A DNA stretch of 12,195 nucleotides from a virus. Lineage: Duplodnaviria; Heunggongvirae; Uroviricota; Caudoviricetes. The notes beneath the pieces were generated by a model, which worked only from the letters and a program-made list of their open reading frames with translations, was not told the origin of the DNA and did no database searches. Shown here piece after piece: positions 8,289-9,863 of the stretch (position 1 is the first letter of the stretch; the number at the start of each line of letters is the position of its first letter). A program made the position numbers and the translations under genes. The stretch lies in the IMG/VR virus record IMGVR_UViG_2675903352_000004, positions 1 through 12,195 of that record. The stretch is one strand, 5' to 3'.

Positions 8289-8330
8289 CGCCATGATTGC
8301 CACGGATGGCAACATATTAACGGCATAATA

Positions 8331-8375
8331 TTGACTTTTTGAATAACTTTGGGGAAACTTGACACCAATAATGGG
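8331..8375 (+). promoter_or_regulatory. PR'-like late promoter with qut-like elements: -35 TTGACT (8331-8336), a weak -10 (GAAACT/AAACTT, about 8354-8360), and a downstream TTGACAC / CCAATAATGGG pause-like element.
   Basis: The layout parallels lambda PR' (TTGACT-17-TAAATT-TGACTCAACGATGGG), here TTGACT-tttttgaataactttgg-GGAAACT-TGACACCAATAATGGG. It sits 43 nt after the Q stop. From memory of lambda PR'. Confidence 0.5.
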
Positions 8376-8567
8376 CGTTTTTTACATGTCATTGATGAGT
8401 CTCAATAACCTGCCGCCGAGTAGTTTTTATGCTCTGAATTGTATTTGTGTAGTAAACATGCTGACTGCAATGTAATAGAGTTTTTTTAGCCTGTAACCTC
8501 TTGACGGCATTGAATTGCTTTTGTTATGAGTTGTAAGCCAATGTTATCATCTTGTATTGGGGTGGTT

Positions 8568-9284
8568 ATGAAGGATGGTGCGCTGCTCAGGAGTTCTTCA
8601 CTTTTTATTGCCTACATGGGATGCCTTGGATGGGGGAGTGCTTATTTCTATGGATGGGGTACTTCTTTTTACTACGGCTTCCCATGGTGGATTGTAGGTG
8701 CAGGTGTTGATGATGTTGCCAGAAGTTTATTTTTTGCAGTTATCGTCATTGCTATATTTCTTATCGGTTGGGGTATTGGTGTTGTATTCTTTTTCGCAGT
8801 GAAAAGAAAACATTCTATGCAAGAGCTAAATGTATTTCGCCTTTATTTTGCTGTGGAATTATTGTTTGTGCCGGCAATTATTGAGTTTTCTATATTGAGA
8901 CAGAAGATTCAGGTACCTCTTTTGCTACTGTCAGCAGCGATTGCGCTGGCGGTTACAATTTCGATAAGATCTTATGGGCGATTTTTATCGGTATCATGCT
9001 TCTATGATAAGCCATTTATAAAAAAACATTTTTTTGAGATTGTGATGATTGCTTTTGTGGCATATTTCTGGCTTTTTTCATTTCTGACAGGATATTACAA
9101 ACCACAGTTTAAGAAAGAATATGAAATGATTAATTATAATGATGGTTGGTATTATGTTCTTGCTCGTTATGATAATTGTCTGGTTTTGTCTACTTCTTTC
9201 AATGCAGGTAGTAAAAGGTTTGTCATTTATCAATCAGCACAAGATAAGAATCTTCAGGTTGATATTGTAAGGACCAGAATTTAA
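8568..9284 (+). CDS. Hypothetical polytopic membrane protein (about 238 aa from ATG 8568; in-frame alternative starts at 8526 and 8541). AT-rich cargo gene between Q/PR' and nanS-p.
   Basis: Four to five strongly hydrophobic segments (e.g. SLFFAVIVIAIFLIGWGIGVVFFFAV, VPLLLLSAAIALAVTISI, FFEIVMIAFVAYFWLFSFLTGYY), an aromatic/Gly-rich N-terminal segment (GWGSAYFYGWGTSFYYGFPWW) and a ~60-aa hydrophilic C-terminal tail. A possible own promoter is TTGACG 8501-8506 with TTATGA about 17 nt downstream; GGGGTGG lies before ATG 8568. Confidence 0.6.
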   Translation: MKDGALLRSSSLFIAYMGCLGWGSAYFYGWGTSFYYGFPWWIVGAGVDDVARSLFFAVIVIAIFLIGWGIGVVFFFAVKRKHSMQELNVFRLYFAVELLFVPAIIEFSILRQKIQVPLLLLSAAIALAVTISIRSYGRFLSVSCFYDKPFIKKHFFEIVMIAFVAYFWLFSFLTGYYKPQFKKEYEMINYNDGWYYVLARYDNCLVLSTSFNAGSKRFVIYQSAQDKNLQVDIVRTRI

Positions 9285-9417
9285 TTGGCTGCATAAATAA
9301 TATTTTAAGTTGCAAGTTGGCTATTCGTAGGAATAGAACCTTAGGCATGCTGAATGCGTTTTCTGAACATTGTTTTATAAACTGTGTCTGCTTGCTGTTG
9401 TGATCCTGCTTTTAGTG

Positions 9418-9528
9418 ATGGTGATGATGGATTTCACCAGCAGGATAATGTTGGTACTGACTGATGGCGCTCTGGTCTGCGGCATTGTGGTATTGCTGTG
9501 GCCTATGATGAAAAAACAGACTGAATAA
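9418..9528 (+). CDS. Candidate small hydrophobic peptide (33-36 aa depending on start: ATG 9418, 9424 or 9427), MVMMDFTSRIMLVLTDGALVCGIVVLLWPMMKKQTE. Single predicted transmembrane helix with a charged C-terminus.
   Basis: This short ORF is absent from the supplied track (below its size cut-off). A hydrophobic core followed by KKQTE is typical of small membrane peptides and type I toxins. GGTGATG lies just upstream of the internal ATGs. Confidence 0.3.
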   Translation: MVMMDFTSRIMLVLTDGALVCGIVVLLWPMMKKQTE

Positions 9529-9744
9529 TGCTTGATTTTTTTGTTTGCTGTTTATTAAAAACATTTCTGCATGGTGAATTCCCCTGTATGGGGGGGGCGA
9601 CTGGTGAATGTCGAATACTTCGATTAATTGTCGATTGGCGGCTGACGCGGGTTCGGTTGCACCAGGCTGAACTCACCGGGAAGCTCCCGGTACCATGCGT
9701 ATATCACAATTGTTATTCCAGTTATCATTTTCCTTGTGAGTTTT

Positions 9745-9770
9745 GGCTGCGCATGGCGCGGCCTTTTTTT
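9745..9770 (+). terminator. Rho-independent terminator upstream of nanS-p
   Basis: Stem GGCTGCGC / GCGCGGCC (9745-9752 / 9756-9763, one G-U pair) with an ATG loop, followed by TTTTTTT (9764-9770). Confidence 0.6.
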
Positions 9771-9863
9771 ACGGCCTGCTATTGGCAGATGTTCATCCTG
9801 TGATTTTCTTCTGTTCCTGCTCCGGCCTTTCCCTACTTTATTCCTGTGCATGAGAGAAATTTG

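Follow-up and report, generated by a model that had tools for sequence, protein, structure and literature searches.

A phage 434-type cassette of a TfpB-family membrane protein, a DUF3927 peptide and the STnc100 small RNA in the cargo slot of an Escherichia coli lambdoid prophage

The late-regulatory region of an Escherichia coli lambdoid prophage makes up the 12,195-nt stretch of viral DNA analysed here (IMG/VR record IMGVR_UViG_2675903352_000004; hereafter the window). The slot under study, the interval from the antiterminator gene Q and its promoter PR' to nanS-p, is with little doubt occupied by the cassette of phage 434, in an architecture of three parts: tfpB, a gene for a DUF3927/TciB-like peptide, and the small RNA (sRNA) STnc100, whose terminator closes the unit. 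The cassette is already catalogued, and both of its proteins belong to catalogued but functionally uncharacterised families. The best reading overall, for which the chances stand at about even, is a moron-type lysogenic-conversion cassette acting at the envelope; a host-directed envelope function for TfpB itself is suggested more tentatively.

The identity of the cassette is evident from its likeness to phage 434 (OL657226, 42170-43402; CPT_434_68, annotated as 'putative membrane protein', and TciB, CPT_434_69), in which TfpB is 100% and the DUF3927 peptide 94% identical to those of the window and the module likewise lies between Q and a SASA esterase gene. From the leader to the end of the small gene, DNA identity is 98% with phage 434, phage 2B8 and EDL933 alike. 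Phage 434 has an 82-type Q/PR', an intact tR' terminator before tfpB and LpxR beside Q, whereas the window is of the lambda type, with a decayed tR' and without LpxR; in phage 2B8, whose TfpB is 98% identical, the junction is exactly as in the window. At least 80% of the interval is present in 569 of 5,426 complete E. coli genomes (~10%). An earlier note, made from the sequence alone, had implied that the slot's content was novel and had been unable to assign the membrane protein to any family; that novelty does not stand, since phage 434 has the cassette already and each protein has a named family, PF27470 (TfpB) and PHROG 1521 for the larger, DUF3927 and PHROG 1470 for the smaller.

The cassette lies at the position where Shiga toxin (Stx) phages carry stxAB, a placement supported by comparison with phage 933W. 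The order there is Q, PR', terminators, three tRNAs, stx2AB, STnc100, AsxR on the other strand, nanS-p and S, so that both share the backbone of Q, PR', cargo, STnc100, nanS-p and holin, with STnc100 directly behind the cargo. They differ in that the cargo of 933W consists of tRNAs and an AB5 toxin, with terminators between PR' and cargo, and that of the window of two membrane proteins. The only conserved open reading frames (ORFs) in the slot are those of TfpB and the DUF3927 peptide, and it therefore contains no stx; ARAGORN found no tRNA genes in the window. The combination of stxA/stxB and tRNAs between Q and nanS-p that marks Stx-phage cargo is thus absent, as the earlier note had stated along with the Stx-phage backbone order. 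The insert has the character of a moron in its atypical base composition (tfpB has a GC content of 36%, against 46-55% in the adjoining genes) and in its insertion amid a conserved backbone syntenic with 933W and 434.

The membrane-protein gene had been described as AT-rich, coding for 238 aa, with an aromatic/Gly-rich N-terminus and a small C-terminal domain, and each of these features was borne out. The Met at position 8568 is taken as the start of tfpB because it is the first residue of every aligned homologue (21/21, of 237-238 aa); alternative starts at 8526 and 8541 were rejected on the same alignment. A Shine-Dalgarno sequence (GAGG/GGGG) is kept upstream of the start across homologues. 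The ratio of nonsynonymous to synonymous substitution rates (dN/dS) takes values of 0.055 and 0.086 when tfpB is compared with its two closest divergent copies and ~0.12-0.18 with distant ones, low values that mark tfpB as a real, functional gene; TfpB is under strong purifying selection.

TfpB matches PHROG 1521, a family of unknown function, over the whole profile (E 2.1e-154), and PF27470, displayed as 'TfpB', is assigned to 108 of 108 homologues in a 5.8-billion-protein collection, including P0001, which is 100% identical. This assignment was read from precomputed annotations of the homologues. The Pfam-A copy that was scanned predates PF27470 and gave no match to TfpB or to 38 aligned members; NCBIfam and the 5,027 models of PADLOC gave none to TfpB either, and a sequence-profile search of the PDB returned nothing at E <= 10. 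An exhaustive profile search found only 72 relatives among 1.84 billion cluster representatives, in Enterobacterales, Pasteurellaceae and Neisseria; they span three orders of Proteobacteria and come exclusively from animal-associated genera, and their clusters are named 'hypothetical' throughout, occasionally 'TfpB'. The name of PF27470 was presumably taken from an uncharacterised tfpB ORF at the Moraxella pilin-inversion locus; a 'TfpB' of Acinetobacter was dismissed as an unrelated PilB-like ATPase. A literature search on TfpB, PF27470, tciA/B/C, DUF3927 and the protein accessions returned nothing on function.

An AlphaFold2 (AF2) model built from 22 close sequences had a predicted local distance difference test (pLDDT) score of 58.8, which rose to 81 (predicted template modelling score, pTM, 0.74) when distant members were added. 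This model has five transmembrane (TM) helices, at about residues 6-36, 47-78, 89-111, 116-136 and 155-181, and a C-terminal five-strand beta domain (187-232). The domain is SH3-like in the model and predicted to face the periplasm, since by the positive-inside rule the loops at 79-81 (KRK) and 134-153 are cytoplasmic. The best-conserved segment is the aromatic/Gly-rich N-terminus, comprising TM1, the FPWW loop and the beginning of TM2, with the family motif A-Y-x-Y-G-W-G ... Y-G-F-P-W-W. In length (~240 aa), in its five TM helices and C-terminal beta domain, and in the aromatic/Gly motif the protein resembles the PF27470 family at large, members of which occur in prophage slots, on plasmids and among housekeeping genes. 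A structure search with the model found no relative in BFVD or PDB, and neither fold, Pfam, PDB nor PADLOC searches connected TfpB to a characterised protein.

The second gene of the cassette had been reported as a hydrophobic peptide of 33-36 codons. The ORF is real but that length is probably an under-call, because the DUF3927 profile spans residues 7-51 of a 52-codon reading from TTG 9370, the start used by the NCBI Prokaryotic Genome Annotation Pipeline (PGAP) and by the annotators of phage 434. The match to PF13064 has an E-value of 6.4e-15 and 55.3 bits against a cutoff of 25, and that to PHROG 1470 an E-value of 2.5e-17. TciB of phage P1 is likewise a small two-helix membrane peptide of the same Pfam and PHROG families, with 53% identity over residues 21-52 (the C-terminal 32 residues). 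It differs in its position between tciA (TerB-like) and tciC in the tciABC operon, the peptide here following tfpB and abutting STnc100. The description attached to TciB, 'tellurite/colicin resistance, inhibition of cell division', we take to stem from its neighbourhood rather than from an assay.

The 235 nt ahead of nanS-p, overlooked in the earlier note, match the STnc100 family RF02076 over its full length (model positions 1-206; 89.9 bits, gathering threshold 47). The terminator that the note had located at 9745-9770 is the 3' hairpin of this sRNA (hairpin 9745-9763 followed by U7, folding free energy, dG, -17.3) and the first intrinsic terminator downstream of PR'. STnc100 forms the right boundary of the slot in Stx and non-Stx prophages alike: in 933W it scores 207.7 bits and begins 75 nt after stx2B, and its position downstream of stx2 was remarked on in a 2025 paper (PMC12370729). 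About 300 Stx-phage records hold an STnc100-like segment similar to that of the window, and TfpB occurs in no Stx-phage record of the collection. Beyond STnc100, EDL933 has the anti-GcvB sRNA AgvB on the opposite strand (tfpB-DUF3927 module, STnc100, AgvB; locus L002, 10257-10509), and AsxR takes the corresponding place in 933W (locus L104, 3189-3448); neither sRNA had a match in the window even at E <= 1. The window sequence departs from that of O157 beyond 9596.

An obligate pairing of TfpB with DUF3927 was rejected, the peptide being absent beside the tfpB copies of enterotoxigenic E. coli (ETEC), Shigella, Salmonella and P0019-type prophages. DUF3927 is missing from every TfpB context other than the 434-type, and in phage Evi it occurs without TfpB, abutting STnc100 and following a different 143-aa ORF downstream of Q (locus L114, 2412-3284), with the holin next and no nanS-p. 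On these gene orders, DUF3927 and STnc100 behave as a unit independent of TfpB, and STnc100 may be the 3' untranslated region of the peptide mRNA.

The difference between the 434-type and lambda-type junctions bears on how the cassette could be transcribed. In phage 434 the shared leader is closely preceded by tR', a 9-bp hairpin followed by U8 (dG -12.5, z -3.7). The corresponding segment of the window, 2B8 and EDL933 has lost its stem through three substitutions and a 4-nt deletion; in the window the best dG is -2.6 kcal/mol and the U-tract is shortened to U5. In the 66 IMG/VR loci whose flanks are complete, the relic accompanies a lambda-type PR' in 37 of 38 and the intact or nearly intact hairpin an 82-type PR' in 27 of 28, so that 64 of 66 follow the pattern. 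A consensus scan and a hairpin-plus-T-tract scan found no canonical terminator between PR' and 9745, in agreement with the earlier note, and comparison with 434 suggests the reason, namely that the 82/434-type tR' has decayed here.

Several weaker candidate terminators in this stretch were set aside. The hairpins preceding the T-runs at 8482 and 9369 are weak, and an imperfect hairpin at 8634-8670 (-10.2 kcal/mol, U4), which could attenuate untranslated transcripts, lies inside the best-conserved coding segment of tfpB. A leader ORF of 34-38 codons (8359/8371-8475) has no Shine-Dalgarno sequence and is probably due to chance. The leader contains 45 G and 32 C, which makes it a poor candidate for a rut site and argues weakly against Rho. 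The +1 of PR' is inferred by analogy at about 8366. PR' is constitutively active in lambdoid lysogens and is normally terminated at tR' (PMC7547250). From this activity and the decayed tR' we infer that PR' transcripts would run ~1.4 kb to the STnc100 terminator, in line with the earlier note's suggestion that both genes could be transcribed from PR' even without Q, and expression of the cassette in the lysogen is on balance rather probable.

Upstream of tfpB a conserved motif suggests a further source of transcripts. The copies on ETEC plasmids, in P0019-type prophages and in iro islands, whose proteins are only 57-68% identical, retain TTGAC(G/T) at -67 to -70 together with a TGnTA extended -10, and the tfpB gene of P0019-type prophages follows the STnc100 terminator. 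On these two grounds tfpB appears to have its own sigma-70 promoter, for which a second, overlapping candidate exists in the window (Table 1). The phage 434 record annotates a CII-binding consensus (TTGY-N6-TTGY) at window 8521-8534 (3098-3111 in locus L001), overlapping the putative tfpB promoter, with the TATCAT -10 sequence 10 nt downstream; tfpB might thus be activated by CII while lysogeny is established.

Table 1. Features of the slot and its flanks, in window coordinates
Feature	Position	Strand	Basis
Q antiterminator, lambda type, 207 aa	7665-8288	+	Pfam PF03589 Antiterm, E 1.2e-57
PR' with qut	8292-8375	+	90-92% identity to annotated promoter/qut of HK446, HK542, mEp234 and HK97
PR' -35 TTGACT, 17-nt spacer, -10 GAAACT	8331-8336, 8354-8359	+	Read from sequence
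PR' pause element, -10-like, AATAAT	8367-8372	+	Read from sequence
Decayed relic of 82/434-type tR'	8407-8429	+	Homology to 434 hairpin
Candidate tfpB promoter, TTGACG, N18, TGt-TATGAG	8501-8506, 8525-8530	+	Motif conserved across copies
Overlapping alternative tfpB promoter, TTGTTA, N18, TATCAT	8521-8526, 8545-8550	+	Consensus scan
tfpB-family inner-membrane protein, 238 aa	8568-9284	+	PHROG 1521, PF27470 homologues, AF2 model
DUF3927/TciB-like small membrane protein, 52 aa, two hydrophobic helices (hydropathy)	9370-9528	+	PF13064, PHROG 1470
STnc100 sRNA (PasD-related family), intrinsic terminator included	9540-9774	+	Rfam RF02076
nanS-p type sialate O-acetylesterase, right flank of slot	9846-11717	+	Pfam DUF1737 + SASA + DUF6645
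Class II (pinholin-type) holin S	11948-12118	+	Translation compared with 434 S

The distribution of TfpB extends well beyond lambdoid slots, and on the varied contexts in which it stands alone, without DUF3927, it is to be regarded as an autonomous single-gene unit. A locus search of genomes with a close TfpB alignment gave only 6 loci. On ETEC plasmids (loci L005-L009) a 59% identical homologue, found in 1,285 blocks of the collection, is divergent from eltAB and ~870 bp upstream of eltA, among STb and insertion sequence (IS) elements, which suggests that the heat-labile enterotoxin (LT) locus derived from a prophage late region. In Shigella, tfpB is present on 106 plasmids among IS elements (pWR100 and pSLG231 were inspected). 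Salmonella, subspecies arizonae and diarizonae included, has sseJ and the frmR-adh-trg block on either side of TfpB, the sseJ neighbour being seen in L004 of the three loci L004, L018 and L019. The syntenic site of Citrobacter rodentium (L108), beside frmR-adh-trg, has a split/frameshifted LpxR in place of sseJ; both neighbours encode lipid deacylases, which may be coincidence. P0019-type prophages of E. coli carry Q, a methylase, tRNAs, STnc100, TfpB, LpxR, in some cases PmrD, and nanS-p; ExPEC (extraintestinal pathogenic E. coli) islands have iroC, iroB, TfpB and then Bor/Iss; in Yersinia, NinG and a Q of a different Q family precede TfpB; and in Avibacterium TfpB stands alone amid housekeeping genes.

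LpxR, a lipid A deacylase, travels with tfpB at 30 of 31 loci of the 82-type module, against 0 of 39 for the lambda-type (coordinates 810-1769 in L001 and about 5972-6919 in L105-L107, with PmrD also in one locus). A 3-kb contig labelled as a Veillonella metagenome-assembled genome (JAIITD010000172.1, L015) encodes a 100%-identical TfpB and probably represents a wrongly binned fragment of an E. coli prophage. By synteny, the Salmonella orthologue of TfpB is probably STM1630. A transcription start site has been mapped for this gene; its -10 box is disrupted in the invasive ST313 strain D23580, where macrophage expression of the gene is lower than in 4/74 (10.1101/689075, 10.1101/450098).

These observations can be assembled into a scheme in which the 434 cassette recombined behind a lambda-type Q/PR', so that in the lysogen PR' transcripts would pass through tfpB and the DUF3927 gene and end at the STnc100 terminator, the first that Q would have to override. 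A promoter of its own would explain how tfpB persists as a stand-alone gene outside phages. TfpB would then act autonomously at the inner membrane and periplasm to the benefit of the bacterial host, a reading that gives it neither a virion nor a lysis function and would place it, by functional class, with the late-region envelope morons Bor/Iss, Lom and LpxR. The likeness to these is one of concept, as they are late-region envelope proteins that are presumably made in the lysogen and alter interactions with host or environment; Bor/Iss and LpxR are also physical neighbours of some TfpB copies. They differ in being outer-membrane proteins or lipoproteins with known activities, TfpB being an inner-membrane protein without sequence or fold relation to them.

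Several points weigh against such a conversion cassette. No catalytic-looking residues are conserved in the wider TfpB alignment, and TfpB and DUF3927 may be unrelated passengers, since they are unpaired outside the 434-type module. The putative promoter of tfpB is a conserved motif only, and expression of this locus in the lysogen is read from sequence: the -10 of PR' is weaker here (GAAACT) than that of lambda, and Rho-dependent or inefficient termination is possible within the 200-nt leader. That virulence genes lie next to TfpB copies may come simply from a common origin in prophage late regions. In the literature, deletion of STM1630 was without effect on intramacrophage replication, and hypermotility reported for an STM1630 mutant was not reproduced by a clean deletion, though only synteny links STM1630 to the Salmonella TfpB.

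Superinfection exclusion or abortive infection, a role raised in the earlier note in which TfpB, with or without DUF3927, would block DNA entry or kill infected cells in the manner of P22 SieA, T4 Imm or HK97 gp15, is an unlikely alternative on the present evidence. It would suit a polytopic inner-membrane protein with a predicted periplasmic domain, borne by a prophage as AT-rich moron cargo that is probably expressed in the lysogen, and stand-alone island copies are likewise typical of defence genes. Against it, TfpB matched none of the 5,027 PADLOC models, PHROG 1521 is of unknown function, and neither BFVD nor PDB yielded a structural match. The near-invariance of the TM1-loop-TM2 segment, which is the best-conserved part and not diversifying, is moreover not expected of a surface engaged in an arms race. 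Its long vertical persistence in Salmonella subspecies, on plasmids of Shigella and in the housekeeping context of Avibacterium also speaks against exclusion, and host-directed conversion fits the stand-alone adjacency to virulence genes at least as well.

That adjacency could alternatively mean that TfpB is an accessory factor aiding the export, activation or tolerance of its neighbours, LT, SseJ, LpxR and elsewhere Stx. The recurrence of TfpB beside eltAB, sseJ (and steB), LpxR/PmrD and iro/iss, and the near-constant presence of LpxR in 82-type loci, agree with a helper role. It is nevertheless improbable because the partners are heterogeneous, being mutually unrelated, and are absent from the window; the lambda-type module as a whole lacks a partner, none of the ~300 Stx-phage records with an STnc100-like segment contains TfpB, and the Avibacterium copy has no virulence neighbour. 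Common prophage ancestry is the simpler account of the adjacency.

A late lytic function, with TfpB made only after Q antitermination and modulating lysis timing, the holin or progeny release, would accord with the position of tfpB in the late operon upstream of the holin and with the intact terminator that separates it from PR' in phage 434. It is very improbable, given the many intact copies under selection without Q, holin or phage genes nearby, the conservation of the promoter-like motif, and the window itself, in which an IS-interrupted holin accompanies an intact tfpB. A hitch-hiking remnant without current function, which the many truncated copies in databases and the lack of a reported phenotype for the probable Salmonella orthologue might suggest, is more improbable still in view of the low dN/dS against close and distant copies alike, the conservation of length, start codon and Shine-Dalgarno sequence across genera, and the spread of 72 cluster representatives over three orders of Proteobacteria.

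The remainder of the window places the cassette in its prophage. The rightward gene order is ninG, NinI phosphatase, lambda-type Q, PR'/qut, slot, nanS-p and pinholin, and the closest complete genomes are O145:H28 and O39:NM, from pig and bovine isolates. In the region 11948-12195, holin S is colinear with that of phage 434 for ~57 codons before it meets the end of an IS; the last 86 nt of the window are a repeat found in 2,453 plasmids and annotated as an IS3-family transposase, which we take to resemble the end of IS2. Because of this interruption the prophage is probably lysis-defective, with tfpB intact. Within a further AT-rich stretch, 3050-5780, a 617-aa ORF on the opposite strand (3552-5405, - strand; ~590 aa in annotations), with a GC content of 34%, is inserted between ninE and the HNH/ninG genes. 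It matches PHROG 9230, of unknown function, has no match in Pfam, NCBIfam or PADLOC, and is labelled 'hypothetical' in O39:NM; it resembles a second moron, possibly effector-like cargo.

Since roughly a tenth of complete E. coli genomes, and many virulence loci of ETEC, Shigella, Salmonella and ExPEC, have TfpB in intact form, the protein presents a well-defined target for assays of envelope, virulence and phage resistance. The 434-type junctions with intact tR' and the lambda-type junctions with decayed tR' form a natural pair in which co-option of constitutive PR' activity could be tested. Cargo transcripts may give rise to STnc100 at their 3' ends, a point of relevance to the biogenesis of prophage sRNAs. 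The farthest-reaching proposal, a doubtful one as it stands, is that the TfpB family is an unrecognised class of envelope conversion factors and that in lambda-Q prophages like this one loss of tR' rewired the constitutive PR' to drive tfpB and DUF3927, with STnc100 produced as the 3' end of their mRNA. If true, enteric and mucosal pathogens would have repeatedly retained TfpB beside lipid A modifiers, effectors and toxins, as at the Stx slot, LT, SseJ/SteB, iro/iss, LpxR and Shigella pINV, and the STnc100 terminator would become a Q-controlled gate.

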